64,000 nucleotides of DNA. Origin: an uncultured Verrucomicrobiae bacterium. GTDB taxonomy: Bacteria; Verrucomicrobiota; Verrucomicrobiia; Limisphaerales; Palsa-1400. Position numbers and translations under genes: made by a program. Below, piece by piece: positions 1,426 through 53,881 of the stretch (its first letter is position 1; each line of letters opens with the position of its first letter). The stretch spans positions 64,001-128,000 of the forward strand of contig CAVPOM010000008.1 in NCBI GenBank assembly GCA_963707025.1, in the 5' to 3' direction. A model generated the notes under the pieces. The model was given only the letters and a program-made list of their open reading frames with translations. It did no database searches and was not told where the DNA came from.

Positions 1426-2820
1426 TCAATCTTCTGGGCGTTCGCCGCTGGGCGCCATCTTCACCAGCTTGGGATCGAATTGGCCGAGGGTCGTGACCAG
1501 GTCTTTTTGTGCGGCCATCACTTCGCGGATGTTTTTATAGGCCATCGGGACTTCATCCAGTCCGGCGCTAATGAGTGTCACGCCGCGTTCGCGGAGAAGA
1601 CGGTTCACTTCTTTCCAGTTGAATTTCTGGTTGGCGGCTTTGCGGCTCATGGCGCGGCCGGCGCCGTGCGAGGCCGAGTTGAGCGAATCGGGATTTCCCT
1701 TTCCGCTCACGACATATCCCGGCGACGCCATGGAACCGGGAATGATGCCCAGGACTCCCGCCCCCGCCGGCGTGGCGCCTTTGCGATGCACGACGACCTC
1801 CCGTTCCACTCCCCCGATAACGTGCTTTTCTTTCCAGGCGAAATTGTGATGGTTTTCCAAATCGAGCAAAACCTGCGCACCGAGGTTTTCCGCGATGTGC
1901 TGGTGGATGCAGGCGTGGTTGGCTGCGGCATATCGCCCCATCAGTTCCATCGCGTTCCAGTATTCTAGTCCGGGCTGCGAATCGAGCGACAGCCAGGCCA
2001 GCCGTTTCAATTCGCTGGGCAAGTCCGCAAATTGAGCGAACGCGATTTTGCTGTAGTAATCGCAAACCGCCGCGCCCGTCCCGCGACTGCCGCTGTGCGA
2101 CAGCAGCGCGACATAAGTTCCCGGCTCAAGGCTGCTGATTTTTGAGTGCGCTGTGAACAGGCCAAACTCGACAAAATGATTTCCGCTCCCGCTGGTGCCG
2201 AGTTGCGCCCACGCACGGTCCTTGTTCTGCTTCACCACCGGGCTGATCGTCCAATCCGCATCCATCACCTCGTGGGTGCGGCGATTCCGAAACGTCGAGC
2301 CGACGCCGAAGCGCGTTTCCGCTTCGATGGCGCGGGTCAGACGGTCCTGACTGTTCTCCAAATCGCGCGCCGGAATATCCAACACCGTCATTTTCATGCG
2401 GCAGGCAATGTCCACGCCGACGGCGTAAGGAATCACGGCGTTTTCCGTTGCCAGCACGCCGCCGATGGGCAGGCCGTAGCCGACGTGTGCGTCCGGCATG
2501 AGCGCCCCCGCCACGGAAACCGGCAGCAAACAAGCTTTCTCCATTTGCATCACCGCCTCGTGTTCCAGCCCTTCGCCCCACTGCCGGTATTTCACTGGAT
2601 CGGCGCGCAGTGGAGGCGGCGCAGCAAGCAACACCTTCGCGAATTCACCGCGCAGCGGGTCGCCCGCATACGCCGACGGATTGGCCACAATGGCAGCGAC
2701 TTCTTCGCGCAACCGCGACTTGTCGCCGCCACCGAGGATGAACTTGGCAACAAAATCCGTCGCCCGCCGCGTCGCCTCGCCCAGCGGCACACCCAGTCTG
2801 ATAAAATCCTTGGTGTTCAT
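1426..2820 (-). CDS. rtcB: RtcB family RNA ligase
   Basis: MPDAHVGYGLPIGG, GVDIACRM, GTSGSGNHFVE, HSGSRG, HRKGAT, SHGAGR motifs; start taken at MNTKDF. Confidence 0.95.
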   Translation of the reverse strand: MNTKDFIRLGVPLGEATRRATDFVAKFILGGGDKSRLREEVAAIVANPSAYAGDPLRGEFAKVLLAAPPPLRADPVKYRQWGEGLEHEAVMQMEKACLLPVSVAGALMPDAHVGYGLPIGGVLATENAVIPYAVGVDIACRMKMTVLDIPARDLENSQDRLTRAIEAETRFGVGSTFRNRRTHEVMDADWTISPVVKQNKDRAWAQLGTSGSGNHFVEFGLFTAHSKISSLEPGTYVALLSHSGSRGTGAAVCDYYSKIAFAQFADLPSELKRLAWLSLDSQPGLEYWNAMELMGRYAAANHACIHQHIAENLGAQVLLDLENHHNFAWKEKHVIGGVEREVVVHRKGATPAGAGVLGIIPGSMASPGYVVSGKGNPDSLNSASHGAGRAMSRKAANQKFNWKEVNRLLRERGVTLISAGLDEVPMAYKNIREVMAAQKDLVTTLGQFDPKLVKMAPSGERPED

Positions 2821-6723: not shown

Positions 6724-7308
6724 TCATTCCCGCACGAACAGCCTCCATTCTGGGATGCCGTGGGCGTTGCGAATGAGGGCCGTGGCCGGCAATTCCTTCG
6801 GCGCGCGCGGCACTGAGAGCAGCTTCAGGCCGGCTTCGTGCGGCAGGCGGTTGCCTTTGCGGGCGTTCACCTCCTTCCCGGCCCAAACCAGGTTGTCCCA
6901 GGCGTTCTTGCCACCGCGCGAGCGGGGTAGGACGTGATCCATGCTGCCTTCCTCGGGGCGCAGCACACGGCCGGTGTATTGGCAGCGGTTGCCGTCGCGC
7001 TCGCGAATGGCGCGGGCGCACAGCTTCGGGCGCTTCTTGGGCACCTTGGCGTAATTCACCGCCACGATCACCGTCGGCACGCGGATTGGACCGCGGACGG
7101 TTCGCACCGCATTGTCCTGCGGGCGCATGGGCAGCGTAATCCACTCGTCCCAGGAAACGGGACGAATGTGATTTTCCCCTTCGATTTCCAGGCCGGTCGC
7201 CACGTTCGTCGCCATCATGCAGAAGGCCTCCTGCGGCGTCCGGACGTTGACGGCCTGCCAGTTGCGGTTGAGCACCAGCACCATCGCTTTGTTCAGTATG
7301 TCGTTCAT
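6724..7308 (-). CDS. HNH endonuclease (McrA-like)
   Basis: VLVLNRNWQ...RDGNRCQYTG...DHVLPRSRGGKNAWDNLV...N. Confidence 0.9.
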   Translation of the reverse strand: MNDILNKAMVLVLNRNWQAVNVRTPQEAFCMMATNVATGLEIEGENHIRPVSWDEWITLPMRPQDNAVRTVRGPIRVPTVIVAVNYAKVPKKRPKLCARAIRERDGNRCQYTGRVLRPEEGSMDHVLPRSRGGKNAWDNLVWAGKEVNARKGNRLPHEAGLKLLSVPRAPKELPATALIRNAHGIPEWRLFVRE

Positions 7309-7347
7309 AAAAATGTCTGCATACGGCCACCGTGCTTGTCGCGGCGG

Positions 7348-7366
7348 GGTGTTTGTTCTTTGTTGA
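7348..7366. repeat. 19-bp inverted repeat, partner at 18267-18285
   Basis: ggtgtttgttctttgttga is the exact reverse complement of tcaacaaagaacaaacacc. Confidence 0.85.
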
Positions 7367-7502
7367 GGCATCCCCGGCGGCGAGATCGAGACGCTTCCTG
7401 AGCATCATTCCGTGTCCAGCCCAGACGAGCGTGCTTCCGGCTGGCCTTCGGCACGTTTTTCGCGCATTTTGGGATTGAAGCGTTCGAATTCTGGAGAAAA
7501 TC

Positions 7503-8278: not shown

Positions 8279-8353
8279 TGGCTGCCTCGCCCGGTTTTGC
8301 TCCAGGTCCTCCGGTGTCAGAGACCGGCGCGCTCCTGATTACGCCACGAGGCA
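8279..8353 (-). tRNA. tRNA-Gln(CUG)
   Basis: Cloverleaf; anticodon arm ccggt-ctCTGac-accgg; encoded CCA. Confidence 0.85.
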
Positions 8354-8388
8354 ATGGCCCGCCGAGCGGCAGCCCGGAGGGAGAAGAT

Positions 8389-8462
8389 TGGTCGCCCGGG
8401 GAGGTTCTGCCCCTCCGATTTCTGGGTGTAGGCCAGACGTGATGCTATTTCACCACCGGGCG
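8389..8462 (-). tRNA. tRNA-Val(UAC), C33
   Basis: tctgg-ccTACac-ccaga; encoded CCA. Confidence 0.75.
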
Positions 8463-8467
8463 GAAAT

Positions 8468-8542
8468 TGGCTGCGGGAGCCGGGTTCGCACCGACAACTG
8501 CGCTTTCAAAGAGCGCCGAGTTGCTGGTTACTCCATCCCGCA
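8468..8542 (-). tRNA. tRNA-Gln(UUG)
   Basis: gcgct-ctTTGaa-agcgc; CCA. Confidence 0.85.
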
Positions 8543-8548
8543 ACAAAA

Positions 8549-8625
8549 TGGTGGAGCCGGAGGTAGTTGCAACCTCACCATACCGGATTAAAAGTCCGGT
8601 GCCGGTCTTCTGTGGCATCAGCTCC
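8549..8625 (-). tRNA. tRNA-Lys(UUU)
   Basis: ccgga-ctTTTaa-tccgg; CCA. Confidence 0.85.
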
Positions 8626-8632
8626 AGGAAAT

Positions 8633-8653
8633 TGGTGCTCGCGGTGGGGCTTG
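8633..8653 (-). pseudogene. 3' remnant of a tRNA (part of T arm, acceptor strand, CCA)
   Basis: caagccccaccgcgagcacca directly upstream of tRNA-Lys, no 5' half. Confidence 0.55.
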
Positions 8654-8837
8654 GGAAACTCCAATAATCACCAAAGGGAAACCGGCGCGGCCGGCATCCC
8701 AGATTCCCTTTGCCTCCGTTTCCGATCCTGCGGGTGTTGGTAAATGTTGGAGTCGCGATTGCGCACCCGCGCACTGGCACTCAAGCGGCCTCTGCGCACA
8801 CAAGCCAGGCCGATTCCTTGAAAAGTTTTCAGTTAAA

Positions 8838-9602
8838 TTGCATCAAAAAAGCTGGCAAAATGGTGTCGTTCACCCTATATTTACACACATAAATGCATCA
8901 CCAGATGACATCCGAAAAGCGGCAGTGGCCGACGCTCGAAGGACGCTTGAGTCAGCCGCTCACTTCACGCGTGGAGGCGGTGCGCCAGCTCCAGACCACG
9001 ATGCCGATTACGCCTGTCGCGCAGGCCGTGTTGAAGCGGAGCAACGGCACCTCATCCAATGGGCCAAAGAAAACGGGAAACTAGGCTCAAGCGGTCGGTT
9101 GCCGCCCGTGTTTGCTCAGGGTGGAGAGCATGATGTCTTTTTTCAAAAATGCACCCAGCGGTATCTCAAGGCGACACGGCAGGATCGACACAAGGGATAC
9201 GGCATTGCCCTCGGTTCGCACACGCACGGTGCAACCCCTGCCGAGTATCTCGACCGTCTCTTCCTTCAGAACTGCATTTTCGATGATGATATTCGGCTTG
9301 AGCGCGTCGTGCAGAACGATGGCAAACCCATAATTATCACATCCCAACCAGCCATCAAAGGAAGCACCCCACGGCAAGACGGACTGGACGAATTGATGAT
9401 CGGGAAGGGCTACGAAAAACTGGCAGAAGGGGCTTATTACGATGAAGGGGCCGGCCTATTGCTGTACGACCTTTTCCCTCGCAACGCCATCCAAGCTGCC
9501 GACGGACATATTTATCCCATTGATCCCGTCATCCAACGCATTACGCCGGACTTTGGGCAGTTTTTGCGGCATGAGCCTTACACGATCGACCTCCCCCGCT
9601 AA
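8838..9602 (+). CDS. Polyvalent-protein-type kinase domain protein (start uncertain)
   Basis: GGEHDV, ATPAEYLDRLFLQNCIFDDDIRL, DLFPRNA...IDPVI resemble the Kinase-PolyVal family. Confidence 0.7.
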   Translation: MHQKSWQNGVVHPIFTHINASPDDIRKAAVADARRTLESAAHFTRGGGAPAPDHDADYACRAGRVEAEQRHLIQWAKENGKLGSSGRLPPVFAQGGEHDVFFQKCTQRYLKATRQDRHKGYGIALGSHTHGATPAEYLDRLFLQNCIFDDDIRLERVVQNDGKPIIITSQPAIKGSTPRQDGLDELMIGKGYEKLAEGAYYDEGAGLLLYDLFPRNAIQAADGHIYPIDPVIQRITPDFGQFLRHEPYTIDLPR

Positions 9603-9744
9603 ACCCTTCATGCTGCGCACTCGTCTGCGGATTGGGCAAGCGGACTTATTGCGTCCGACTTATTGCGTCACCTTCCGCAATGATAATCGGGTCCGGTAAC
9701 GCCCAGGAACCCGACGCTCATCTAGCGTGACGCTGTGGATAAAA

Positions 9745-9768
9745 CTGCTCACTTTGAGCTACATGCGC
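9745..9768 (-). pseudogene. 5' remnant of a tRNA (acceptor strand and part of D arm)
   Basis: gcgcatg-tagctcaaagtgagcag then the cloverleaf breaks off. Confidence 0.55.
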
Positions 9769-9773
9769 GAAAA

Positions 9774-9865
9774 TGGCGGAATGCCGTGGACTTGCACCAC
9801 ACTCCTGTTTCCAGGAGCGCACTGTTTAGCGAACAGGCCCGGGCCCCTCGTCCGGTTGGCATTCC
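9774..9865 (-). tRNA. tRNA-Ser(GCU)
   Basis: Loop tcGCTaa, long variable arm ctcctg-gaaa-caggag, GCCA end. Confidence 0.8.
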
Positions 9866-9869
9866 AGAT

Positions 9870-9953
9870 TGGTCGGCGTGGGGAGACTTGCACTCCCAAG
9901 GCTGTTCGATCTTGAGTCGAACCGGTCTGCTATTCCCGATTAACCACACGCCG
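9870..9953 (-). tRNA. tRNA-Leu(CAA), atypical fold
   Basis: ttcga-ctCAAga-tcgaa; ACCA; extended acceptor-D connector, short variable region. Confidence 0.75.
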
Positions 9954-9954
9954 G

Positions 9955-10036
9955 TCGGCGACCCGGGACTTGCACCCGGAAGGCTCGGCGATTTTAAGTC
10001 GCCGGGGTCTGCTGTTCCCGCTGAAGCCAGTCGCCG
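9955..10036 (-). tRNA. tRNA-Leu(UAA), atypical fold, no full CCA
   Basis: ggcga-ctTAAaa-tcgcc; abuts the next tRNA. Confidence 0.75.
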
Positions 10037-10041
10037 TAAAA

Positions 10042-10125
10042 TGGTGGGCATGAAGGGACTTGCACCCCCAAGGCTGCCAGATTCTGAGTCTGGACCCTCT
10101 GCTGTTCGGGTTAAACCACATGCCC
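10042..10125 (-). tRNA. tRNA-Leu(CAG), atypical fold
   Basis: ccaga-ctCAGaa-tctgg; ACCA. Confidence 0.75.
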
Positions 10126-10132
10126 GTGAAAT

Positions 10133-10209
10133 TGGCAATCCCGGAAGGACTCTCACCCTCATCTCCGACGTTTCGAAGCGTCGCGCTCTGCTCATTGAGC
10201 TACGGGAGC
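10133..10209 (-). tRNA. tRNA-Arg(UCG), 8-nt loop as sequenced
   Basis: cgacg-ctTCGaaa-cgtcg; GCCA. Confidence 0.7.
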
Positions 10210-10281
10210 GTTGAAATTGGCGGTCGTGCTCCAGCGCCTGCGAATCGCTTTTTGCCCGAAAGCTTGAGACGATGCAGGCGT

Positions 10282-11110
10282 ATGAAGAAAACAGTTCTGA
10301 TCACGGGAGCGTCCTCCGGTATTGGCCAGGCGGCGGCCAAGGTATTTGCAGGCAACGACTGGAACGTCATTGCCACCATGCGCCAGCCGGCGGCGGATTC
10401 GGAATTGGCCCGCCTGCCTGGCGTATTGGTCACATGCCTGGATGTGCAGGATCGAGAGAGCATTGACGCGGCCGTTGCGGACGGTGTTGAGCGGTTCGGC
10501 CGGATCGACGCCTTGATTAACAACGCAGGATTCAGTCTGTTCGGCGTCTTCGAGGCGATTTCCCGCGAAAAGATTCAAGAACAATTCGACGTCAACGTCT
10601 TCGGTGTGATGGACGTTCACGCGGGCGCTGTTGCCGCATTTCCGGCGGAACAGGAGCGGCTTGATTATCAACATCAGTTCGCGCGCGGGGCTGGTCGGCC
10701 TGCCCATGATTTCGCTCTATTGCGCGGGCAAATATGCGCTGGAAGGGTTTTCCGAGGCGCTGGCTTACGAACTGGCGTCGCAGAACATCGTCATCAAGGT
10801 TGTCGAACCTAGCGGCGGCGTCACCGGCACCAGCTTCTCCCAGAGGATGGCCCAGGAAAAGACTGCCGGCACCCTGCCCGCCGATTACGACGATTTTATT
10901 GCCCGCACCAGCGCGATTTTCGCCACCATGCAGGCGGCCCGGAAAACCACCGCAGACGACGTGGCCCGCGTTATCTATGAGGCCGCGACGGACGGATCGA
11001 GCCGGTTTCGCTATTTCATCGGCGAGGACGTTGGAGACTTCGTCCAAGCGAAGCGCGAGAAATCCGACCAGGACTACATTCATTTCATGCGCGCGCGCTT
11101 TTCCTCTTGA
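10282..11110 (+). CDS. SDR family oxidoreductase (frameshift near 10620)
   Basis: TGASSGIG, NNAG, YCAGK motifs split across two frames. Confidence 0.85.
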
Positions 11111-11117
11111 CTGGAAA

Positions 11118-11192
11118 TGGTGGGTTGCCGCGGAATTGCACCGCGTTCTCGCCGGTTAAGAGCCGGGACTTCACTGTAAAAGTTTGCAACCC
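11118..11192 (-). tRNA. tRNA-Lys(CUU)
   Basis: cccgg-ctCTTaa-ccggc; ACCA. Confidence 0.8.
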
Positions 11193-11193
11193 A

Positions 11194-11267
11194 GACGCGA
11201 CACGAAGGCGGAGTTGAACCGCCGCAGCCAGGTCTGTGATGCCCTGGCCGGCGCCGGTGTTCGCGTC
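11194..11267 (-). ncRNA. tRNA-like structured RNA with canonical T arm, no CCA
   Basis: Terminal stem gacgcga/tcgcgtc, hairpin gccagg/cctggc, T arm ggcgg-ttcaact-ccgcc. Confidence 0.5.
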
Positions 11268-11278
11268 GCGAAAGTATC

Positions 11279-11372
11279 CCCAAGCACGCTGAATCTGGCG
11301 TTTGGCCAGATGGCCGTGCGCAAGCACCTTCGACCGTGCGGAGTCTCTGCCGGCAGGCCAGATTCACTTGGG
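11279..11372 (-). ncRNA. Putative structured small RNA
   Basis: Closing stem cccaag-tgaatctggc / gccagattca-cttggg. Confidence 0.4.
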
Positions 11373-11375
11373 AAA

Positions 11376-11466
11376 TGGTCGGGCATCAGGGTAACGCGCC
11401 CTGTATTCCGGTTTGGAAGGCGTTTGCACGCGGCCATCAGCGTGTTTCTCTCAACACCTATGCCCG
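11376..11466 (-). tRNA. tRNA-Gly(UCC)-like with ~16-nt insertion in the anticodon stem
   Basis: cgggcat/atgcccg ACCA, loop ctTCCaa, 91 nt long. Confidence 0.55.
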
Positions 11467-11522
11467 GAGAAATGGAATTAATCGTCGTTGTTGGTTTTCT
11501 CAAAAGACGCAACAATCCAGCC

Positions 11523-12269
11523 ATGACGATTCCGGCTGAATTGGTCCAACGTCTTGCCACTGCCAAAAGCGTGACCGTGCTCACAGGCGCTGGCGTATCC
11601 GCGGAAAGCGGCGTCCCCACCTTTCGCGATGCCCAAACCGGCCTGTGGGCCAAATACAGTCCCGAAGAACTGGCCACTCCGCGCGCCTTCCGACGCAATC
11701 CCCGCCTCGTTTGGGAGTGGTATGAGTGGCGGCGGAAGCTTGTCGCCGGCGCCAAACCAAACCCAGCGCACTTCGCCTTGGTGGAAATGGAGGGCCTCTT
11801 TCTGCGGTTCCATCTCATTACGCAAAACGTGGACGGTCTTCATCAACGCGCCGGAAGCCGGCACGTCATCGAGCTGCACGGCAATATCACGCGCACGAAA
11901 TGCTCCGACGAAAGCACGATTGTTTCGAGTTGGAAAGACACGGGTGACGTCCCGCCGAAATGTTCGGCCTGTGGCGGCCTGTTGCGCCCCGATGTGGTTT
12001 GGTTCGAAGAGCCGATGCCGGAAGAGGAGATGCAAGAGGCCATGACGGCGAGCACGCATTGCGACTTCTTCTTCTCCATTGGGACATCCACCGTTGTTTA
12101 TCCGGCGGCCGCCCTGCCATCGGAGGCATTGCGCAGCGGAGCGACCGTGGTGGAGATCAATCCGCAACCCACACCATTCACGCCGCAGGCGCATTTGGCT
12201 CTGGCTGGGGCGGCCGGGGTTGTGTTGCCCGAATTGGTGAGGGCTATCAGCGCCTCGCGCCGCTTTTGA
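11523..12269 (+). CDS. cobB: NAD-dependent protein deacylase (sirtuin)
   Basis: TGAGVSAESGVPTFRD, ITQNVDGLH, ELHG, RPDVVWF. Confidence 0.9.
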   Translation: MTIPAELVQRLATAKSVTVLTGAGVSAESGVPTFRDAQTGLWAKYSPEELATPRAFRRNPRLVWEWYEWRRKLVAGAKPNPAHFALVEMEGLFLRFHLITQNVDGLHQRAGSRHVIELHGNITRTKCSDESTIVSSWKDTGDVPPKCSACGGLLRPDVVWFEEPMPEEEMQEAMTASTHCDFFFSIGTSTVVYPAAALPSEALRSGATVVEINPQPTPFTPQAHLALAGAAGVVLPELVRAISASRRF

Positions 12270-12272
12270 AAA

Positions 12273-12347
12273 TGGAATCCCGCGTGGGGGGCGCACCCAC
12301 TTTTGCGGCTTTGCAGGCCGCCGCCTGAGCTGTTCGGCCAACGGGAC
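12273..12347 (-). tRNA. tRNA-Cys(GCA)
   Basis: gcggc-ctGCAaa-gccgc; U73 CCA. Confidence 0.85.
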
Positions 12348-12352
12348 GCATT

Positions 12353-13099
12353 TCAGATTTCGACGACCAATGAAGGATTAAACCCTTTGCAGCGCTCATC
12401 CGGGTAGCCCAGTTGATTTGTCAGGATACGGGTTGACCCCATCACGTAGTCCACGTTGTAATGCGTGTGTCCGTGGATCCAGAGAGGAACGCCACTCTGT
12501 TCGACCAACGAGTCCAAGTCGGAAGCAAACGCCGCTTTAAGTGGACTGTCCGCGTGATAGAGCGCTTCTGACCGGGCACTCGGTGCATGATGCGTCACAA
12601 CGATGGTGCGGGCGCGATCACATTTGGCCAGCGCGCGGCGCAGCCAGGCGACAGATTCCGCGTGCAATCTGGCGGTGTCACATGCGCGCAGCCTGCGATT
12701 TTCTGTGCTGAACTGAACGATGCCGTAGTCGCTCATGATGGCCTCAGCTACGCGCATCGATCCATCCAGATCGTCACCCAACTGAAAATCTGTCCATAAG
12801 GTGCATCCCAAGAACGTGTAGCCGTTGATTTCCACGGCGTCGTTCTCCAGCAGATGGATGTTGCTGCCATCTGTTTCTCGTTTCAGGGTTTCGGTCAGCT
12901 CGGGCAAGGAGTGGCGATAGAACTCGTGGTTTCCTAAAACGTAAATGACCGGCTTGGCGAAGAATTGATTTCTCGCCCAGATACGCCCTTCGCGGCCAAG
13001 ATGAACGTCACCCGCCAACACCACGACATCCGCGTCGGTCACGGGGATTTTGACTGCTCCGAATTCAAAGTGCAGATCGGCCAAAATGTGTAAACGCAT
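12353..13099 (-). CDS. Metallophosphoesterase
   Basis: DLH, GD, GNHE, HH, HGHTH motifs. Confidence 0.9.
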   Translation of the reverse strand: MRLHILADLHFEFGAVKIPVTDADVVVLAGDVHLGREGRIWARNQFFAKPVIYVLGNHEFYRHSLPELTETLKRETDGSNIHLLENDAVEINGYTFLGCTLWTDFQLGDDLDGSMRVAEAIMSDYGIVQFSTENRRLRACDTARLHAESVAWLRRALAKCDRARTIVVTHHAPSARSEALYHADSPLKAAFASDLDSLVEQSGVPLWIHGHTHYNVDYVMGSTRILTNQLGYPDERCKGFNPSLVVEI

Positions 13100-13198
13100 A
13101 GGTAACTTTATGTTAGGTGAAAATTGGTTAGGAGTTCAAAGTGCGGGCGGAAGCTTCCGCCTCCGCCCGCGTTGTTCCTGGCGTCCTTGAACCGTTCG

Positions 13199-14906
13199 CT
13201 ATTCGCGAACAAAGTCCGCAATGACGGCTGGCACCGTCGTGTCGAAGCCGACCACGTCCAGCATGCCCGCGGTCGTTTGGGTCGGCGAGGGTGAAGCCGT
13301 TGGAGGTCATGCCCACAACGACCGCCTTCGCGTCGCCGACGAACTCGTCGCGATACTGGCGCAGGGCCTGGGCCGGATGGATGTTGCCCGCCCACGTCTC
13401 GCTGTCCGTATAGGTGATAAACGCCGACACGTTCAGCTTGTTGCGGGCGGCCCACACCATCGGCAGGGCGCAATCCGTGCCACCCATTGGGATGGCTTCG
13501 ATGCGCTTGATGACGTCGGCCAATCTCATGCGCGGCGAGAGGTTCACACGGGTGATGCCCGGTTCGCCGCCGCCGTGCATGCCACCGTAACCACCGCCCG
13601 CCGGAGCCGAGAACGCGATGATCTCGCATTCCGGTTCGGTTGCGGCCGTGATCAGTGCCATCGCCGCGCTGGCTTCGCGGGCCGAGATGCACGAACCCGC
13701 GATCATGGAACCATCCATCGAGCCGCTTACGTCAAGCGCGAGCAGCACCGGCTTGTTGCACGGTTCCACGTTCTGGAACGTCGCGTAAAACGCTTCGTCC
13801 AGCGCGTCCACCACCGCCGACACCGGCGACCACGCAAGCGAACCCTTGTCGCCGTGACCCTGGGCGTAGACCTTCTGCGCCACAAGGACCGCCAGCGGGT
13901 GGATGCGCGCACGCTTGAGCGCCATCTCGTCCTGCAGCTTGCGGACGATCAATCGCTTGGAGTCGCTGAACGGAGCCAGCAGACCGAGGCTCGTCATCTT
14001 GCCGAGGTTGCGGATCATCGCCGTCATCGGCATACGTTCCAGCAAGGCCTCCCACACAACGACTTCATTGAGCCACTGCGTTGGGATGGCTTCGCGCGGC
14101 AGGTCGAACTCGTTGATGATCTTCACGATCTCGTCCGCGCTCAATGCGCGCTTGGCCCGCTCGAAGGCTTCGATGAGCTTCGGCAGTGCGCCGACCGGGC
14201 CATACTTCGCGACACGGTCTTCACCGCGCACTCTGCGCTTCACTTCGCGTTCACCCAACGAATCCGCATGGGAAGCGGAACCTCCGCACAGCAACCAGCG
14301 GAACACCGATTCGTGCTGGGCCGACGGAGCCTTTGGGTGAGCAAGGCGAAGAAGGTCGCCGTGCGACCAACCGTCGCGTTGCTGGTACTTGACCGCCTGG
14401 TGCGCAAGATCATCGGCATCGCGGTAAACATACCAGTCGCCAACGGCGTTGCGCAGGCCACGGCCCCAGCCGCGCATGGCATTGACGTATTCGGCGAAGT
14501 GGAACAAGTGCGTGCCAATGCGGCAGACCTTGTTCAGGCTCGCAAACGCGAGCGCCTTCGCCTGGGCATCACCATGCGTGACGGCCAGCGCGAGGGCGAA
14601 GATGGCCGGATCGTTCTTGGGCGCGCGTCCGGCATCGCTGATCTCAACGATGCGGTTGACGGCACGGACTCCGTCGGCCCTGATGCAGCGGAGAATCGCC
14701 TCGTGGTTCTGCTTCACGAGATCGCGTTCCGCGATGTAATACGTGCCTCCTTCGGCGCCGAGGACGAGGAAACGGTCGAGCCGCGTCCAGTCATCCACTT
14801 CCCACGAGAAGCCGCCGCCCGAATTGCGAACCTGGTTCGCGCCCGGGATCGGCTGCGACTGCGGGGTGATGCGGCGATTAAACTGACGTGCGTAATTGAT
14901 AGCCAT
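13199..14906 (-). CDS. rsr: TROVE-domain Ro60 orthologue (frameshift near C-terminus)
   Basis: RLDRFLVLGAEGGTYY, KYQQRDGWSHGDLLRLAHP, vWA DVSGSM; tail MLDVVGFD lies in another frame. Confidence 0.95.
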
Positions 14907-14965
14907 GGTGGCCTCCTTCTTGTGAGCGTGCCGCCAACTTCCGGCACGGGTTTTCTATCGGTTAA

Positions 14966-15033
14966 ACTGCGGACAAGTTGGTGAACGTGGGATGGTCATT
15001 CGTAGTGATAACCCATGTTCTTCGGCCCGCAGT
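14966..15033 (-). ncRNA. Minimal Y RNA (Ro-binding stem only)
   Basis: gcgggccga...cttgtccgc stem and gggttatc motif shared with the other five copies. Confidence 0.7.
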
Positions 15034-15047
15034 CAATGGGCTTGCGA

Positions 15048-15295
15048 TTATTCGCGGAAAAAAGTGATTCCTCAGAGCGCCGTCATATCGTCCGGAGCGG
15101 AGGCAGCATTTCTTAAAAGCTGCGTCCGGAGCCGCATGGGCAGAGGTCGTTCCGCCCCAGCTTTTCGCTGAGTTCCTTATTCCCGTGAACGAGGCGCACG
15201 CCGCGTTTGACGTTCGTTTCGGACGGGAAGCCCTTGCGGCGTTTGCTGGTGATTTCGAAACTGGCGTCTTCATGATCATGTGTGTTGTTTGCCAT
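15048..15295 (-). CDS. SEC-C motif protein (two homopolymer frameshifts)
   Basis: [15 protein letters not shown] continuing KKCC in a shifted frame. Confidence 0.8.
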
Positions 15296-15357
15296 ACGGC
15301 CTCCTCGTTTGAGTATTGCGGTTGAAACATCGTGGCCCGCGCCACGATGAGATAGCG

Positions 15358-15465
15358 GATGGGCAAGGGACGACCCGGGAATTGCTCTATCCACTGAGCT
15401 ACTCCTCGTTGCCGAGGAGACTGGATTCGAACCAATGACCGATAACCCGATGTCTTCGGCCCATC
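15358..15465 (-). ncRNA. Y RNA (YrlA-like)
   Basis: gggccga/ttgccc Ro stem; permuted tRNA domain with T arm ttcgaat, closed acceptor stem and D arm. Confidence 0.85.
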
Positions 15466-15473
15466 AAATTGAA

Positions 15474-15598
15474 AGCGGGCAAGAAAGCGACCGTGGAATT
15501 GCCCAGCGTGCTGCCTTTACACCACTGCGGAACGCTCCGCGGGACGGAATTGAACCGCCGCTGCCGGGTTATCGAGAACCCACAATTTACGGCCCGCT
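15474..15598 (-). ncRNA. Y RNA (YrlA-like)
   Basis: Ro stem; T arm ggcgg-ttcaatt-ccgtc, closed acceptor, D arm. Confidence 0.8.
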
Positions 15599-15607
15599 GA
15601 AAGGGAC

Positions 15608-15736
15608 CGACGGATAAGAAACGAACTGGGAATTTACGTGCTCTACCCCTGAGCTACCCCGGCATTGGAGCCGGAGGCGGGACTCGAACCCGCAACCTCG
15701 TCGTTATCAGCGATAACCCAATCCTGCGACCCGTCG
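15608..15736 (-). ncRNA. Y RNA (YrlA-like)
   Basis: Ro stem; T arm gcggg-ttcgagt-cccgc, D arm tagctcaggggtagagc. Confidence 0.85.
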
Positions 15737-15745
15737 AAAAAGCCG

Positions 15746-15859
15746 CGACGGACAAAGAGCGATATGGGAAACAATCGGTCGCCCGATTGCGCGGGGTTCG
15801 AACCCGCTCATCCCGCAGTGCGGAACTTTTCCAGATAACCCATGATCAACGACCCGTCG
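15746..15859 (-). ncRNA. Y RNA variant
   Basis: Ro stem, gggttatc motif, T arm gcggg-ttcgaac-cccgc. Confidence 0.7.
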
Positions 15860-15866
15860 GAAAAAC

Positions 15867-16004
15867 TCGATGGACAAGTGCTGCCGCAGATAGGGATTCG
15901 CAAGCGGGAATCGAACCCGCGTCACCAAACTCACGTTCGGCGGCTCTCTCACGGTGAGCAACCACCCCTGTTGGAGCGATAACCTGCAACATTCGGCCCA
16001 TCGA
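15867..16004 (-). ncRNA. Y RNA variant
   Basis: gatgggccga/cttgtccatc stem, ggttatc motif, T arm gcggg-ttcgatt-cccgc. Confidence 0.7.
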
Positions 16005-16007
16005 AAT

Positions 16008-16083
16008 TGGTCAGGAAGCCGGGATTTGCACCCGGACCGTCGCGTTCACAACGCGGAATGCTGCTGTTACACCACAATCCTGA
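16008..16083 (-). tRNA. tRNA-His(GUG), A73 with U at -1
   Basis: ccgcg-ttGTGaa-cgcga; ACCA. Confidence 0.75.
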
Positions 16084-16090
16084 TTTGAAA

Positions 16091-16166
16091 TGGAGCCCCT
16101 GGTCGGACTCGCACCGACGAATACGAGTTTACGAAACTCGCCCTGTGGCTGCTGAGGCACAGGGGC
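16091..16166 (-). tRNA. tRNA-Thr(CGU)
   Basis: cgagt-ttCGTaa-actcg; CCA. Confidence 0.85.
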
Positions 16167-16170
16167 ACAA

Positions 16171-16248
16171 TGGTGTCCACGGCAGGAATCGCGCCTGCGA
16201 CCTCCACCTTCGCGCGGTGGCGCTCTGATCTAACTGAGCTACGCGGAC
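16171..16248 (-). tRNA. tRNA-Arg(GCG) (identity tentative)
   Basis: ccacc-gcGCGaa-ggtgg; ACCA. Confidence 0.65.
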
Positions 16249-16251
16249 AAT

Positions 16252-16329
16252 TGGCATCCGTGATCGGACTTTCACCGATTAGGCCCGGCTTGAAAGACCG
16301 GCTGCTCGATCTGCTTTGCATTCACGGAC
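16252..16329 (-). tRNA. tRNA-Glu(UUC)
   Basis: ccggt-ctTTCaa-gccgg; GCCA. Confidence 0.85.
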
Positions 16330-16333
16330 AGGA

Positions 16334-16409
16334 TGGCCGCTGGAGTCGGAATTGCGCCGACACTTCCTGTGCTTCAAGCAGGTGTGCAGACTGACTACAC
16401 CATCCAGCG
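16334..16409 (-). tRNA. tRNA-Phe(GAA)
   Basis: cctgc-ttGAAgc-acagg; CCA. Confidence 0.7.
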
Positions 16410-16417
16410 GGCAAAGC

Positions 16418-16636
16418 GGTGCGCGGCAGCTTGGGTCAGCTACCTTGAAGGGCTGTCTAAGAAGCTTGAGCCTTGCGGGCTGCGGCTTGCATTTTGAACG
16501 AGCTGACCGATGTGGTTTGACAACTCGGCATCAACATCAGCAGGTAATTGGATTTTCGGTCCAATAAGGAACGTTTAGAGCGCTCCAGATTTTGACAGCG
16601 TGCTCCATCGGCGGCATTCCGCCACCACCGCGCACC
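16418..16636 (-). ncRNA. Putative ~220-nt structured RNA downstream of the DIP1984-family gene
   Basis: Closing stem ggtgcgcgg/ccgcgcacc, inner ggtcagct/agctgacc stem, repeated CAA motifs. Confidence 0.55.
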
Positions 16637-16658
16637 TGAATCAGAACCGCTGGCGGAA

Positions 16659-17105
16659 TCAAGGATTCACGCTGCGGGTGAAGTTGAACTCGTCCAGCGC
16701 ATCTTGCAGCGACTGAATTTCGGCGTTCAACTCGGTGACAAGTTTGTCCACGTCCACCTTGCCGAGCTGGGCGACATATTCGACCTCGTAGCTTGCATCG
16801 GCAAAACCGCGTCCTTCGTGGAAAACGCCGGCCTTGGTGTCCAGCGCGTTCAACGTGGTGGCCAGACCCTTGAGTTCCGCCAGCCGGAAAATCCGGTCGT
16901 AGATTTCCACGTTGGCGGCCGCGACGGCGGCCTTGACCTTGACCAATTCGTCGAGCTTAACGCGCAGGCGCGTCAAGACTTCGCGATTGTCGTAGTCGAA
17001 CTTCTGTTTAGTGGAACGGGAGTTTTGTTTGGTGAGCAGATCCTTCAACTGGGCGACTTCGCCGGCCAGTTGGTTTTTCATTTTAAGTGCTTTGGCGATT
17101 TTCAT
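16659..17105 (-). CDS. DIP1984-family coiled-coil protein
   Basis: MKIAKALKMKNQL...LQDALDEFN pattern typical of the family. Confidence 0.7.
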   Translation of the reverse strand: MKIAKALKMKNQLAGEVAQLKDLLTKQNSRSTKQKFDYDNREVLTRLRVKLDELVKVKAAVAAANVEIYDRIFRLAELKGLATTLNALDTKAGVFHEGRGFADASYEVEYVAQLGKVDVDKLVTELNAEIQSLQDALDEFNFTRSVNP

Positions 17106-17146
17106 TGGATACCTTTCATTGGTTGCGTGTGTTTGATCGAATGAGT

Positions 17147-17220
17147 TGGTCGTCCCGGCAGGTAACGCTCCTGCTTCTTCCGGTTATCGACCGGAGGCTC
17201 TGCTTTTGAGCTACGAGACG
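17147..17220 (-). tRNA. tRNA-Ile(GAU)
   Basis: tccgg-tcGATaa-ccgga; ACCA. Confidence 0.8.
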
Positions 17221-17230
17221 GTGGTTAATT

Positions 17231-17323
17231 GAGGCTTCACGCCAAAACGATGCGCGGGGCGGAACACAAGATTGAGCTTCGTGGTCGGGCGGATTCGAAT
17301 GCCACGTTTTGGCTTGTAGCTTC
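17231..17323 (-). ncRNA. Putative structured small RNA
   Basis: gaagct..gccaaaacg / cgttttggc..agcctc stem enclosing ttcgaatcc. Confidence 0.4.
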
Positions 17324-17394
17324 GACGAAAAGGGCATTGACTTTGATGCCGCATTATGGGTTTCACGGGATTTCCTTTCGTTGAGGGTTAAAAC

Positions 17395-17481
17395 TGGCGG
17401 ATGGTGTAGGGATCGCACCCACGCAGCCCGCAGGCTCACTCGGTTTTCAGGACCGGGGCATTACTTCTCTGCCAACCATCC
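17395..17481 (-). tRNA. tRNA-Ser(UGA)
   Basis: Loop ccTGAaa, long variable arm, GCCA. Confidence 0.8.
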
Positions 17482-17489
17482 GTACAAAT

Positions 17490-17563
17490 TGGCTGCCAGA
17501 CTTGGACTCGCACCAAGACAAGCGGCTTAACAGGCCACCGTGCTACTTTGACACCACCTGGCA
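17490..17563 (-). tRNA. tRNA-Asn(GUU)
   Basis: gtggc-ctGTTaa-gccgc; GCCA. Confidence 0.85.
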
Positions 17564-17564
17564 A

Positions 17565-17640
17565 TGGCGCTGCCGGCAGGATTCTCACCTGCATCTATCC
17601 GCTTAGAAGACGGATGCCTGATTTGTTCGGCCACGGCAGC
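17565..17640 (-). tRNA. tRNA-Arg(UCU)
   Basis: tccgt-ctTCTaa-gcgga; GCCA. Confidence 0.85.
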
Positions 17641-17647
17641 GTTGAAA

Positions 17648-17723
17648 TGGTCGGAATGGCAGGATTTTCACCTGCGGCCTCCCGGTCCCAAGCCGGGTGC
17701 TCTAAAGACTGAGCTACATTCCG
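17648..17723 (-). tRNA. tRNA-Pro(UGG)
   Basis: cccgg-ctTGGga-ccggg; C1-G72, A73. Confidence 0.85.
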
Positions 17724-17730
17724 TGAAAAA

Positions 17731-17806
17731 TGGCGGACCCGAAGGGAGTTGCACCCTCAACCCTCCCGCAGACAACGGGGCGCTCTGCTGATTGAGCTAC
17801 GGATCC
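17731..17806 (-). tRNA. tRNA-Asp(GUC)
   Basis: ccccg-ttGTCtg-cggga; GCCA. Confidence 0.8.
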
Positions 17807-17810
17807 GAAA

Positions 17811-17898
17811 TGGTGGGAAGTGCTGGTAATGCTCCAGTCGTCGCTTCCGACATGTTTTGAGACGTCCGGGTTACGGCCGGATTGCCGGATCACTTCCC
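17811..17898 (-). tRNA. tRNA-Tyr(GUA) lacking a canonical D arm
   Basis: 8-bp acceptor gggaagtg/cacttccc ACCA, tccgg-ccGTAac-ccgga, large variable region, 4-bp T stem. Confidence 0.65.
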
Positions 17899-17904
17899 TG
17901 AGAT

Positions 17905-17977
17905 TGGTAGCGGGGGTGGGAGTTGCGCCCACGGAGGCTGAGCTTATGGGGCTCGCCTGAATCTCATTCTCCCCGCA
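17905..17977 (-). tRNA. tRNA-Met(CAU), initiator-like acceptor, short D arm
   Basis: gagc-ccCATaa-gctc; 1:72 mismatch, gcgggg acceptor. Confidence 0.7.
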
Positions 17978-17983
17978 GTGAAA

Positions 17984-18058
17984 TGGTGGAGTCGGTGGGT
18001 AGCGCGCCCACATCAACCTGCTTGCAGGGCAGGTGCATTGCTTGTCTGCCACGACCCC
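17984..18058 (-). tRNA. tRNA-Ala(UGC)
   Basis: cctgc-ccTGCaa-gcagg; G3:U70. Confidence 0.85.
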
Positions 18059-18064
18059 GGAAAA

Positions 18065-18136
18065 TGGCAGGCTGCCTCCGTGCTGCCCGGAGTAAGCTGA
18101 GTTTTGGAGACTCGGCCGCGTGCTGACGCTCAGCCT
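18065..18136 (-). tRNA. tRNA-Trp(CCA), short D arm
   Basis: gagt-ctCCAaa-actc; G73 CCA. Confidence 0.75.
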
Positions 18137-18145
18137 GTGCATGAA

Positions 18146-18220
18146 TGGTGCGGCTGCCGGGAGTTGCGCCCGGACTTCCTCCATGGCGAGGAGATATTCT
18201 GCTGCTTAAATCACAGCCGC
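18146..18220 (-). tRNA. tRNA-Gly(GCC)
   Basis: tctcc-tcGCCat-ggagg; ACCA. Confidence 0.8.
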
Positions 18221-24121: not shown

Positions 24122-24991
24122 TCAACGAGGATTCTCCTCGGCCTCGGTGCTTTCTGCAAAACGTCCGAACAACCGCCGCCGCGCATGGGCAAGAACTTCC
24201 GGCGCAGAAATGTGGCAGGGCCAAAACAGTCCCACCACTTCGCCCGCCTGGCGCAAATGGATGGCCACACTGTCCCTGTGCCATGTGAACCTGACCGAAT
24301 CCAACCGTCGGACGGTGTGGTCATACAAGATCGCCGGGACGGCGGCGCCATGACTGAACCAAACATAGTCCAGCAATCCGATGCGGTGGTAAAACACAGG
24401 ACGCACAGGGCGGCCCCGGGTTTTGGAGACTTCAGCCGTGAAAACCTCATCTTTCTCCGCCGGCCTGAGACCTCTGGGCGGGTGTCCCAACACCTGAACG
24501 ACCGCGCCGGACATGTTGCGACCGCTCCCCCAGGCCGGCTTGTCCCACAAATCCACCGAGTAGGCCGGCCGGTTTTGCCAACGGCCCATGCTGCAACGCA
24601 ATCGAACCCGCTTCCTTTCCAGGGGCCCAGAATTCATGGGGAGAAAGAGGTCCTCGTCCTCCGGATGGATCCGCGTCCACCAAACCGCGTCCCGCAGGAC
24701 CCGGGCCATCGGTATCGAACCGGGTTTCCAAAAAGGACTCGGATCGTTCTCGTAGAGCACGTAGAAGTTCTCTCCCGCAGCGCGCGCTGCCTGCGTGAGC
24801 TTCTCCCCGTCCAACGTCAGGTCCAAGTCGGCCTGTTTCAGCAGCCGACCGTGGATGTTGCAAACCTGCGCGTTGAACACAACAAAGTGGCTGCGGTGCC
24901 GCTTGCAATAGCCGCTTTTTGAATTCGCGATCAGGCGTCCCTCGGTAAAACCATGTTCCCGAAGGACGGCTATGATTTGGTTGTGGTGCAT
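24122..24991 (-). CDS. Hypothetical protein
   Basis: 289-aa ORF in the same cluster. Confidence 0.6.
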   Translation of the reverse strand: MHHNQIIAVLREHGFTEGRLIANSKSGYCKRHRSHFVVFNAQVCNIHGRLLKQADLDLTLDGEKLTQAARAAGENFYVLYENDPSPFWKPGSIPMARVLRDAVWWTRIHPEDEDLFLPMNSGPLERKRVRLRCSMGRWQNRPAYSVDLWDKPAWGSGRNMSGAVVQVLGHPPRGLRPAEKDEVFTAEVSKTRGRPVRPVFYHRIGLLDYVWFSHGAAVPAILYDHTVRRLDSVRFTWHRDSVAIHLRQAGEVVGLFWPCHISAPEVLAHARRRLFGRFAESTEAEENPR

Positions 24992-26229
24992 GGAATTAAT
25001 ATTGGGTCTCCATTGAGCATCTCATCTAGCCGATCACCGAGGATTTTCCATTGTCCTCGTTCGATTAGGTCAGCTGGAGCATCTCCTTTCAACCGGGGAT
25101 TCGGTCGTTCCAGCCAGCCGATGAGCACTCCGTGACGCAACCCTCGGTCATAAAATGCCAGCAACAACATCGTCCGGACAATGGCGCATTTTCCTCGCCA
25201 TCCGCGCATTTTCACGATGTCAGGTATTCTTAACATGTCCTCATCGGTTCTGATCGCATGCCCGTACTGCAACTGCCGTTCAGCCCGTGTTTTTTCTTCG
25301 TAGGTTTTCACGTGTTCAATGACCCGATCTGTTTTGCCAGACCGGATCAGATCCAGCGGACGTTGATTATCCAAGGCGTGGCATTTCCCCAGGAAAAACT
25401 CCATCATAACCCATTCGTGGCGGCTGCGAAAAACATGTAAAACGGCTTCGACGCCCGCCAGCACCTTTCCGTCTTCGAACTGCCAAACCGGGAACCGAAT
25501 AGTCAACCCTTCCTCCCATGATACCAAACGTCCGTCACGCAAACGCTCCAGCACTGCCGATTCAGATATTCCGAGCATACGGGCCGCATCTTCAACCGAC
25601 ACTCCGCCTCCGTCAGCGAGCTGCATTGTGCGCCGGCCTGCCTGGCATTCAGCGATGGGGTCCGTGTGTGGATCGATCGTTTCTGGCGTGAGTGAATCGT
25701 TCTCCGGAGGAGGCGTAGCATTGGCTGCGGGCATGGGCCCCTCCATTATGATATCGTTCACCTCATCGGCGAGTCTTCTCCACCGCCCTCCCTGAAGCAG
25801 ATCGACAGGGGACTTTCCAGAGAGCCGGGGATTTGGTTTTTCCAGCCAGCTTCGGAACGCCCCAGCGACCCAAAAACTCTCCAGATCCACCAGAAACAAA
25901 ATGGCGCGAACGACCTCGCGGACATCTTTCGACTGGAGCACTTTGACAGGATTAGATTCCTGTGCGATGTCTTCAGCGCTGGCTATTGCCGGCTTCGATT
26001 TCGAGCGCCGCTTTAATGCGGTGTTCTTTCGTGGAGCACCTAATTGTTTCTGCATAGACATCATGGCAGTCGTCCTGCTCAATCGGCAGGTCAATTTCGA
26101 TCGTGGCCTACAATCAAGTTTGGTAAAATCGTGTTCAATCATCACCAGTGGACTTTGTCGGAAAGCTGATGCCGGTGAAAGTGATATCCAACCACATGTA
26201 TTTTCTGCAGTGTGCGGGATTTTCTCCAA
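24970..26229 (-). CDS. Protein with three MbcA/ParS/Xre-like toxin-binding domains and an HTH (start uncertain)
   Basis: WLEKPNPRLSGKSPVDLL; FFLGKCHALDNQRPLDLI; WLERPNPRLKGDAPADLI. Confidence 0.7.
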   Translation of the reverse strand: MEKIPHTAENTCGWISLSPASAFRQSPLVMIEHDFTKLDCRPRSKLTCRLSRTTAMMSMQKQLGAPRKNTALKRRSKSKPAIASAEDIAQESNPVKVLQSKDVREVVRAILFLVDLESFWVAGAFRSWLEKPNPRLSGKSPVDLLQGGRWRRLADEVNDIIMEGPMPAANATPPPENDSLTPETIDPHTDPIAECQAGRRTMQLADGGGVSVEDAARMLGISESAVLERLRDGRLVSWEEGLTIRFPVWQFEDGKVLAGVEAVLHVFRSRHEWVMMEFFLGKCHALDNQRPLDLIRSGKTDRVIEHVKTYEEKTRAERQLQYGHAIRTDEDMLRIPDIVKMRGWRGKCAIVRTMLLLAFYDRGLRHGVLIGWLERPNPRLKGDAPADLIERGQWKILGDRLDEMLNGDPILIPCTTTKS

Positions 26230-53244: not shown

Positions 53245-53245
53245 C

Positions 53246-53881
53246 ATGCCTCTCCCCTGGCCAACATTCTGGCAGCATATTCGGGTGGAAGATCGCGCTG
53301 CGCTTTCTGATGTGCTCACCGAACTGCTCGCTCACGGCGCGTTGCTTGGCGATGGCGGCCGTGACCACGAACTCTACATGGTGGCCCGGGAATATCAGCG
53401 TGAAATTGGCGAATACCTCGCGCCGTTGCATCTTGAATTGGTGCCTGACCCCGACCGGCCTATTTTCCAGGTCCGCCCTGTGCCCGGCGATTGCGGCCTT
53501 ATGGCGCGATTCAATAAAGCCGAGACGTTGCTTGTTCTGACGCTCTGGCGGATCTATCACGATGCGCGTATGGAGCGGACGGTTGAGACCGTGGTCGTCA
53601 GCGCCAACGACATCTGGCAGCGGCTCAAGCTCTACTTTGAACAGGTGGACCTGCCCACTGCCTCGCAACTCCGTGACATGCTCGGCAAGCTGCGCAATCA
53701 ACGGCTTGTGCGTTTGCAATGGCACGAGGATCCGAATCAGTTTGGCGAATCTCAGGTGGAAATCCTGCCCACGCTGGCACGAGCGATTCCATTCGAGAAC
53801 GAGTCCGCTTGGGAACAGCAGGCTGCATTGTATCAGCAGCCAGACGCCGAAACCGAGGAGAAGAAGGAGGAAGCGCCGTGA
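53246..53881 (+). CDS. jetB: Wadjet KITE subunit (DUF4194)
   Basis: ETLLVLTLWRIY; size and position. Confidence 0.75.
   Translation: MPLPWPTFWQHIRVEDRAALSDVLTELLAHGALLGDGGRDHELYMVAREYQREIGEYLAPLHLELVPDPDRPIFQVRPVPGDCGLMARFNKAETLLVLTLWRIYHDARMERTVETVVVSANDIWQRLKLYFEQVDLPTASQLRDMLGKLRNQRLVRLQWHEDPNQFGESQVEILPTLARAIPFENESAWEQQAALYQQPDAETEEKKEEAP

Follow-up and report, generated by a model that had tools for sequence, protein, structure and literature searches.

Three genes on the minus strand of the window (the whole 64,000-nucleotide stretch of DNA analysed here) raise the question of how a tRNA-Leu is built, and whether it can work, when the long class II variable arm is missing and the segment connecting the acceptor and D stems is far longer than usual. 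To our knowledge, the cloverleaf with a 2-nt connector is regarded as nearly universal outside mitochondria. The genes stand in tandem between positions 9870 and 10125, in the order Leu(CAG) (10042–10125), Leu(UAA) (9954–10036) and Leu(CAA) (9870–9953), and all have an acceptor stem of 7 bp, an anticodon stem of 5 bp and a T stem of 5 bp. The variable region comprises 7 nt, compared with 13–17 nt in the five class II Leu genes of the same genome, and reads (c/g)agcctt in all three; on both points, the absence of the long arm and the short variable sequence, the first-pass annotation of this DNA was right. The distance from acceptor to anticodon stem, measured with a descriptor that took the acceptor, anticodon, and T stems as fixed points and left the spacer lengths free, is 25, 26 and 25 nt for CAG, UAA and CAA, versus 19–20 nt in the five class II genes. 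The connectors read tggtttaa (CAG), tggcttcag(c) (UAA) and tggttaat (CAA). As their register is fixed by the CAGA at the end of the D arm, which is common to most other Leu genes of the host genome, they comprise 8 or 9 nt; the earlier figure of 8–10 nt thus holds for CAG and CAA (8 nt each), whereas UAA has 9 nt instead of 10 and a mismatch of C10 with C25. CCA is encoded in Leu(CAG) and Leu(CAA) and not in Leu(UAA), where a single C separates A73 (position 9955) from base 1 of the CAA gene.

The complementarity between connector and variable region is present in each gene just as it had been written down: GGUU (10114–10117) faces AGCC (10072–10075) in Leu(CAG), GGCU (10025–10028) faces AGCC (9982–9985) in Leu(UAA), and GGUU (9942–9945) faces AGCC (9900–9903) in Leu(CAA), all on the minus strand. 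These strands are paired in the minimum free energy (MFE) folds of Leu(UAA) and Leu(CAA); that of Leu(CAG) is misfolded, and there the helix is supported by covariation (see below). The genes are poorly matched to standard models. Leu(CAG) and Leu(CAA) score 31.3 and 30.5 bits with the Rfam tRNA model and 90.8 and 94.1 bits with the family covariance model R1; Leu(UAA) scores 83.5 bits with R1 and is missed by both the Rfam model and ARAGORN, which called none of the three genes when run on the window.

Viral contigs, GTDB genomes and metagenomes were scanned for homologues with patterns that fixed the end of the D loop, a Leu anticodon, the 7-nt variable length and the T loop and placed no constraint on the two helix strands. 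On the scanned loci the descriptor recognized at least 396 distinct Leu genes, at least 257 of which had a long 5′ spacer and a variable region of 6–8 nt. Leaving out three with a 22–23-nt spacer and one that could not be placed gave 253 aligned genes. The homologues come from Verrucomicrobiota arrays, metagenomes, and large phages; by origin, the at least 253 distinct ones divide into 104 from metagenomes, 79 from genomes, 49 from viral contigs, and 21 from relatives. Among the 79 loci listed in the genome scan, 62 carry Verrucomicrobiota titles, and most of the remainder may be mis-binned MAG contigs or chance matches. A T4-like capsid gene was found in three of the five viral records tested. 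A copy with the helix GAGU/ACUU is present in two cultured Cellulophaga phages, phi38:1 and phi40:1; it lacks an annotation in phi38:1 (KC821614:38539–38621; positions in the phage feature table are shifted by 52 bases relative to the sequence) and is labelled "Undet" in Calle_1. ARAGORN detects only 24 of the 522 instances of such genes in the fetched loci, so the numbers of tRNAs counted in phages and arrays are underestimates. When the window cassette was compared with named phages and plasmids by BLAST, nothing beyond short T-arm matches came up. A loose pattern run on 401 genomes of the phylum gave mostly chance matches (0 of 30 fetched loci held a gene with the extra helix), and the Leu genes of FelixO1 and Racecar were rejected as family members, their connectors being normal. 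Other phage Leu genes (L296, L297, L301, L316, L321, L324, and L513:2971–3045) have a normal connector together with a variable region of 6–7 nt, some with a class II-type core, and are possible intermediates in the loss of the arm.

Closer to the host, distribution is patchy: the cassette of three genes occurs in six of 30 other genomes of the family (a seventh match, in genome G006, looks like chance), and across the order the covariance model matches 16 of 151 genomes, the host being one of them; the five of these loci that were inspected all hold true or chimeric copies. Leu(CAG) is 96–99% identical in eight of 10 relatives' loci, and the neighbouring HNH endonuclease gene 73–83% in the nine loci that hold it. 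As far as sequence comparison goes, the extra-helix genes with Leu anticodons are evidently under strong constraint. Contigs from four metatranscriptome runs (three studies) cover the Leu cassette, one of them over 256 bases with three differences; they belong to relatives and may reflect carry-over of DNA.

The proposal that connector and variable region form an extra helix withstood comparison across these homologues, which supports the original interpretation in this respect. Among 111 representatives (clustered at 90% identity outside the helix), the four pairs between connector positions 2–5 and the variable region are formed in 111, 110, 96 and 104 sequences, respectively. The helix takes the forms GGUU/AGCC, GGCU/AGCC, GGAU/AUCC, GGAC/GUCC, GGGU/ACCC, GAAC/GUUC, GAGU/ACUU and GCCU/AAGC among the homologues, the second pair occurring as G-C, A-U, U-A or C-G, the third as U-G, A-U, G-C, C-G or U-A, and the fourth as U-A, C-G, U-G or G-C. 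When 2278 column pairs were ranked by a corrected G statistic, helix pairs 2–4 took ranks 11, 21 and 22, amid the canonical stems; the top 23 consist of 19 canonical stem pairs, the 18:55 elbow and the three helix pairs, and all seven pairs of the acceptor stem covary. In the first pair, G9 faces C or U; as only one of its sides varies, covariation lends it no support. The helix pairs were also compared with simulations along a tree from which the helix columns had been withheld (a rough tree, as the sequences are short). The third pair reached G = 188, against a null maximum of 68 (0 of 1000 simulations). The second was equalled by G in 7 of 1000, with both sides changing on the same branch in 8 of 8–9 cases (null maximum 4), and the fourth in 6 of 1000, with 5.3 same-branch changes versus 4. 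Off-register control pairs gave 583, 289, 178 and 25 of 1000; for one further off-register pair, formed by the first base of the linker and the last of the helix, the figure was 3 of 1000 by G, with no excess in the same-branch count.

If the genes were decayed or duplicated pseudo-tRNAs, the complementarity could be a chance 4-mer passed on by descent, and the prevalence of the GGUU/AGCC version (157 of 257 genes) together with the existence of chimeric and of broken copies would fit such a history. However, 45 of 83 representatives (80% identity outside the helix) carry a strand other than GGUU, and 33 of these 45 pair fully with their own partner, whereas only 9 would do so with AGCC. In the set of 83, all four pairs are formed in 68 sequences; 10,000 shuffles of the partner strand gave 31.5 on average and never more than 45. 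As the tree-based null is exceeded and sequence conservation is high as well, this explanation is very improbable; the covariation tests, comparative as they are, already contradict it. The chimeric Leu genes themselves (G000:C2:107771–107851, on contig C2 of the host genome, and loci L494 and L505) join the 5′ part of a CAG gene to the 3′ part of a CAA or UAA gene and apparently arose by recombination between tandem copies.

Consensus folding agreed with the extra helix where the alignment permitted it. In a gapped MAFFT alignment of the 83 genes, RNAalifold did not predict the helix; as the gaps fell inside the 5′ strand, the program was rerun on a gap-free alignment of 43 genes of equal length, a subset with less variation (seven cells with double changes). 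There, pairing of columns 9–12 with 51–54 was predicted unprompted, and 94.8% of the pairs are formed, versus 28–70% for slid partners. That the pairing is real and yet confined to a precursor or an alternative conformer, or consists of base triples with the D stem instead of a stable mature helix, we consider quite unlikely. Energetics leave some room for it: in the three window genes the helix contributes only 0.2–2.7 kcal/mol, and when sequences are folded singly its mean pair probability is 0.17, low like that of the D stem. The third pair is not plain Watson-Crick either, given its wobble-type series of U-G (52/111), C-A (11/111) and U-U (3/111) and mismatches in 15 of 111 representatives, and its position correlates with positions 13 and 23 (ranks 25, 30 and 40). 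Against this stand the Watson-Crick swaps from G-C to A-U, U-A, and C-G at three stacked positions, the same-branch changes of the second pair at twice the null maximum, and the subtype with a 6-nt variable region, which retains the pairing in a shifted register.

Taken as a stable helix, the pairing redraws the fold. Six or seven extra bases follow U8, and the first four connector bases from G9 onwards pair with the variable region. The resulting 4-bp helix is nested, not a pseudoknot, and because it encloses the D and anticodon arms, the four-way junction becomes two three-way junctions, one of acceptor stem, extra helix, and T arm, the other of extra helix, D arm, and anticodon arm. Of the 59 genes whose last connector base forms a Watson-Crick pair with base 26, 30 have lost pair 27-43, compared with 4 of the 52 others (Fisher p = 5e-7, uncorrected for kinship); this trade-off suggests that the length of the D-anticodon stack is preserved. 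A 26-44 pair (62 of 106 paired) and a fifth helix pair between the first linker base and base 44 (49 of 106) were also considered and found unsupported.

The core of the molecule is of the class II type. U48 is present in all 254 selected genes, A73 in 253, G9 in 253 and A22 in 252, and among the 253 aligned genes A73 and A20a each occur in 252, while A15:U48 is formed in 111 of 111 representatives; as A14/A15 served as alignment anchors, U48 was part of most search patterns and A20a part of the patterns, the counts for these bases are not independent, whereas A73 was left free in the patterns. Purine13-A22 is kept, as in class II Leu genes, and G9 is likewise found in 28 of 28 class II genes, whereas the class I-like Leu genes of the arrays have A9 (89/97) and C13 (92/97). 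G9, purine13-A22, and A15:U48 are thus combined with the LeuRS identity bases A73 and A20a. The elbow departs from this pattern. The three window genes have A18/G55 in place of G18:U55; in the 111 representatives the elbow is A/G in 86 and G/U in 23 and covaries (rank 18), and A18 is found in 226 of the 253 aligned genes. Because the combination covaries and is common to the class I-like array Leu genes (G55 in 80 of 97), A18/G55 is a trait of the arrays and not a sign of decay. According to the available part of PMC9976931, leucine identity in Escherichia coli rests on A73, A15:U48, and A20a together with the G18:U55 elbow, while the variable arm and anticodon are dispensable; A18/G55 therefore counts against charging.

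Leucine specificity of the fold is pronounced. Among 1008 distinct tRNA-like genes from the fetched loci and three host contigs, all 249 genes with long connector and short variable region are Leu genes; seven non-Leu calls with a long connector were rejected, as each allows at most two of the pairs. Scans of viral contigs for non-Leu anticodons gave 18 and 0 matches, none with the extra-helix fold, and no suppressor or other non-Leu versions of the fold were found, the TTC-type T loop having been scanned in viral contigs only. When the anticodon was left free and U33 was excluded in 360 loci, all 21 matches were Leu genes with a fully paired helix, 17 of them Leu(GAG) with C33 (e.g., in L024, L203, L207, L220, L248, and L493). 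U33 is near-universal in tRNAs. With these GAG genes, all five bacterial Leu anticodons occur in the fold.

The host genome also encodes all five ordinary Leu tRNAs and a class I-like set. A second array (G000:C4:150843–151073) holds three class I-like Leu genes, armless and with a normal connector, a spacing of 18–20 nt and a variable region of 5 nt, which brings the genome to three tRNA-Leu architectures for one LeuRS gene, located on contig C7; no dedicated LeuRS was found in the host genome, nor any LeuRS gene in the five phage records examined. In the anticodon slots of the arrays, extra-helix and class I-like Leu genes are interchangeable. Given this redundancy, the extra-helix genes are not needed for decoding.

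The surroundings of the genes add to the question of what they are for. They belong to an array of about two dozen co-oriented tRNA-like genes (8282–18220, minus strand), within which lie a Ro60/TROVE gene (13128–14906, minus strand; Pfam TROVE and vWA_Ro60) and Y-RNA-like stretches (15364–16004, minus strand; YrlA and Deinococcus Y RNA, below the gathering score). Judged against the C-terminus that we take to be the usual one, the Ro60 gene looks frameshifted near that end. Downstream of the array follow the HNH endonuclease gene (6724–7371, minus strand), a D-aminoacyl-tRNA deacylase gene and the gene for the RNA ligase RtcB (1426–2820, minus strand). A short-chain dehydrogenase gene inside the array (10282–11110, plus strand) is divided between two frames. 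Wadjet-like genes (JetA and an SMC-type protein; 51760–57295, plus strand) and a gene with an MbcA/ParS antitoxin domain (24970–26229, minus strand) give the window the look of a mobile or defence island.

Other members of the array are unusual in ways of their own. Many have T loops that start with UG and D loops without GG. Directly beside the Leu genes, 9774–9865 (minus strand) reads by eye as a tRNA-Ser(GCU) with an 8-bp acceptor stem, a 4-bp T stem and C33, missed by ARAGORN and Rfam, which resembles the (8/4) tRNA-Ser that Mukai et al. described in 2017. A tRNA-Arg-like gene on the other side (10133–10209, minus strand) has an 8-nt anticodon loop (ARAGORN anticodon tcga); the corresponding gene on contig C2, whose loop is 7 nt long, is called as Arg(UCG). 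Finally, 11199–11272 (minus strand) is a weak tRNA-Sec match (23.3 bits) that looks like an acceptor stem, a T arm and a single hairpin with no D arm, and a similar element is present in the C2 array.

With Ro60 and Y-RNA-like genes in the array and RtcB nearby, the Leu genes might be non-decoding tRNA mimics, decoys for tRNA-cutting toxins or partners of Ro60 or RtcB that display Leu-like features as bait. A sponge role was raised in the L-array paper (PMC8421152, as far as available). The redundancy just described and the A18/G55 elbow would suit such a role, as would a C1-G72 start in 156 of 254 genes. A decoy, however, would hardly account for the canonical 7/5 acceptor-T branch, the 7-nt anticodon loop with purine 37 and the full set of five Leu anticodons, for A73 in all but one of 254 genes, or for the CCA encoded in 202 of them, and its elbow argument is weakened by the covariation of A18/G55 and its occurrence in class I-like array genes. 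We regard the decoy explanation as unlikely.

Likely, in our view, the genes are working accessory tRNA-Leu isoacceptors of a mobile array, built on an altered secondary structure, charged by the host LeuRS and decoding leucine. Sequence comparison establishes the helix, the Leu specificity, and the retention of a class II core with LeuRS identity bases; from these we infer that the helix takes over the function of the variable arm. The extra helix would run alongside the D stem, in the place taken by the base of the long variable arm in ordinary tRNA-Leu, and by occupying this position it would allow the L shape and a class II-type core to survive without a protruding arm. It would be this class II-like core that enables the single ordinary LeuRS of the host to charge the extra-helix tRNAs. 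According to the available text of PMC6614811, type I tRNA-Leu of Streptomyces is charged by Streptomyces LeuRS and not by that of E. coli, which would be a reason to keep such a core. CUG, UUA, and UUG would then be decoded when the array is switched on, under translational stress or, for the phage copies, during infection; of the 26 tRNAs of the Anabaena L-array, 23 are found aminoacylated in vivo once the array is induced (available part of PMC8421152). The least certain point is the selective advantage. The most probable one would be a Leu tRNA that remains a substrate for a LeuRS restricted to type II and whose shape is unlike that of the host tRNA-Leu attacked by nucleases, and evasion of nucleases is put forward here as a hypothesis. 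The available parts of PMC13462974 and PMC13056530 do not show recognition of the variable arm by bacterial Schlafen, and no specific nuclease was linked. In its widest form, the idea is that of a translating non-cloverleaf tRNA class with five helices and two three-way junctions, in which the class II core is rebuilt, LeuRS can charge the molecule, and nucleases or toxins are evaded; towards this we lean slightly.

Several hundred related genes that share a junction topology other than that of the cloverleaf, backed by covariation, would extend the range of tRNA structures known to be tolerated by the ribosome, EF-Tu, RNase P, and LeuRS. They also open to direct testing the standing question of what the variable region of class II tRNA-Leu, as opposed to that of class I, tells LeuRS. 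If the proposed gain is real, mobile arrays and phages would stay chargeable by the host LeuRS while escaping nucleases or toxins that recognize the normal tRNA-Leu shape. The cultured pair of Cellulophaga phage phi38:1 and its host opens the way to an in vivo test, and the fold may serve as a compact scaffold for tRNA engineering.

Unusual Leu tRNAs of cyanobacteria were reportedly the subject of work by Kawach et al. in 2005 and by Puerto-Galan and Vioque in 2012. A helix between connector and variable region was not described in the literature searched, most subscription journals lying outside that search. The available parts of PMC13092985, PMC12803027, and PMC5335546 contain nothing on the fold, and the main text of PMC8421152, as far as available, does not describe Leu tRNA structure; the supplement text of PMC5389517 has no match to "Leu", although figures of either paper may show such tRNAs. 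The array as a whole resembles the L-array of the Anabaena PCC 7120 trn operon (Santamaria-Gomez et al. 2021, PMC8421152, available part), being a long, co-oriented tRNA cluster that is patchy among kin, redundant to the housekeeping tRNAs and close to HNH and rtcB genes, and Verrucomicrobia are named there among the carriers of L-arrays. With the allo-tRNAs and (8/4) tRNA-Ser/His (PMC5389517 and PMC7609411, in the parts available), some of which have Leu anticodons, the family shares a non-canonical fold and a place in phage or mobile clusters. In allo-tRNAs, however, the acceptor/T stems are 8/4 or 9/3, and both the long variable arm and the four-way junction are retained, whereas the extra-helix genes have 7/5 stems, have lost the arm and have gained a helix. 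Like type I tRNA-Leu(CAA) of S. coelicolor (Fan et al. 2019, PMC6614811, available text) and the three armless genes of the C4 array, they lack a long variable arm, and as in S. coelicolor they coexist with class II tRNA-Leu and a single LeuRS; type I tRNA-Leu, in contrast, is an ordinary cloverleaf with a 2-nt connector, a variable loop of 4–5 nt (5 nt in the case compared), A9, C13, and no extra helix, where the window genes have connectors of 8–9 nt and a variable region of 7 nt. Closest is canonical class II tRNA-Leu, as in the five ordinary genes of the host genome (identity rules in Giege and Eriani 2023, PMC9976931, available part), with which they share the 7/5 branch, G9, purine13-A22, A15:U48, A73, a D loop ending in (C/U)AGA with A20a, and a single unpaired U before U48. 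They differ from it in the connector of 7–11 nt instead of 2, in the helix added between connector and variable region, in an elbow that is mostly A18/G55 instead of G18:U55, and in a variable region of 7 nt in the window and 6–8 nt in the family in place of a variable-arm hairpin of at least 10 nt. The extra-helix genes thus represent a new structural variant of tRNA-Leu that is neither type I tRNA-Leu nor allo-tRNA; by its sequence it would work like class II tRNA-Leu, yet by its variable arm it falls outside that class.
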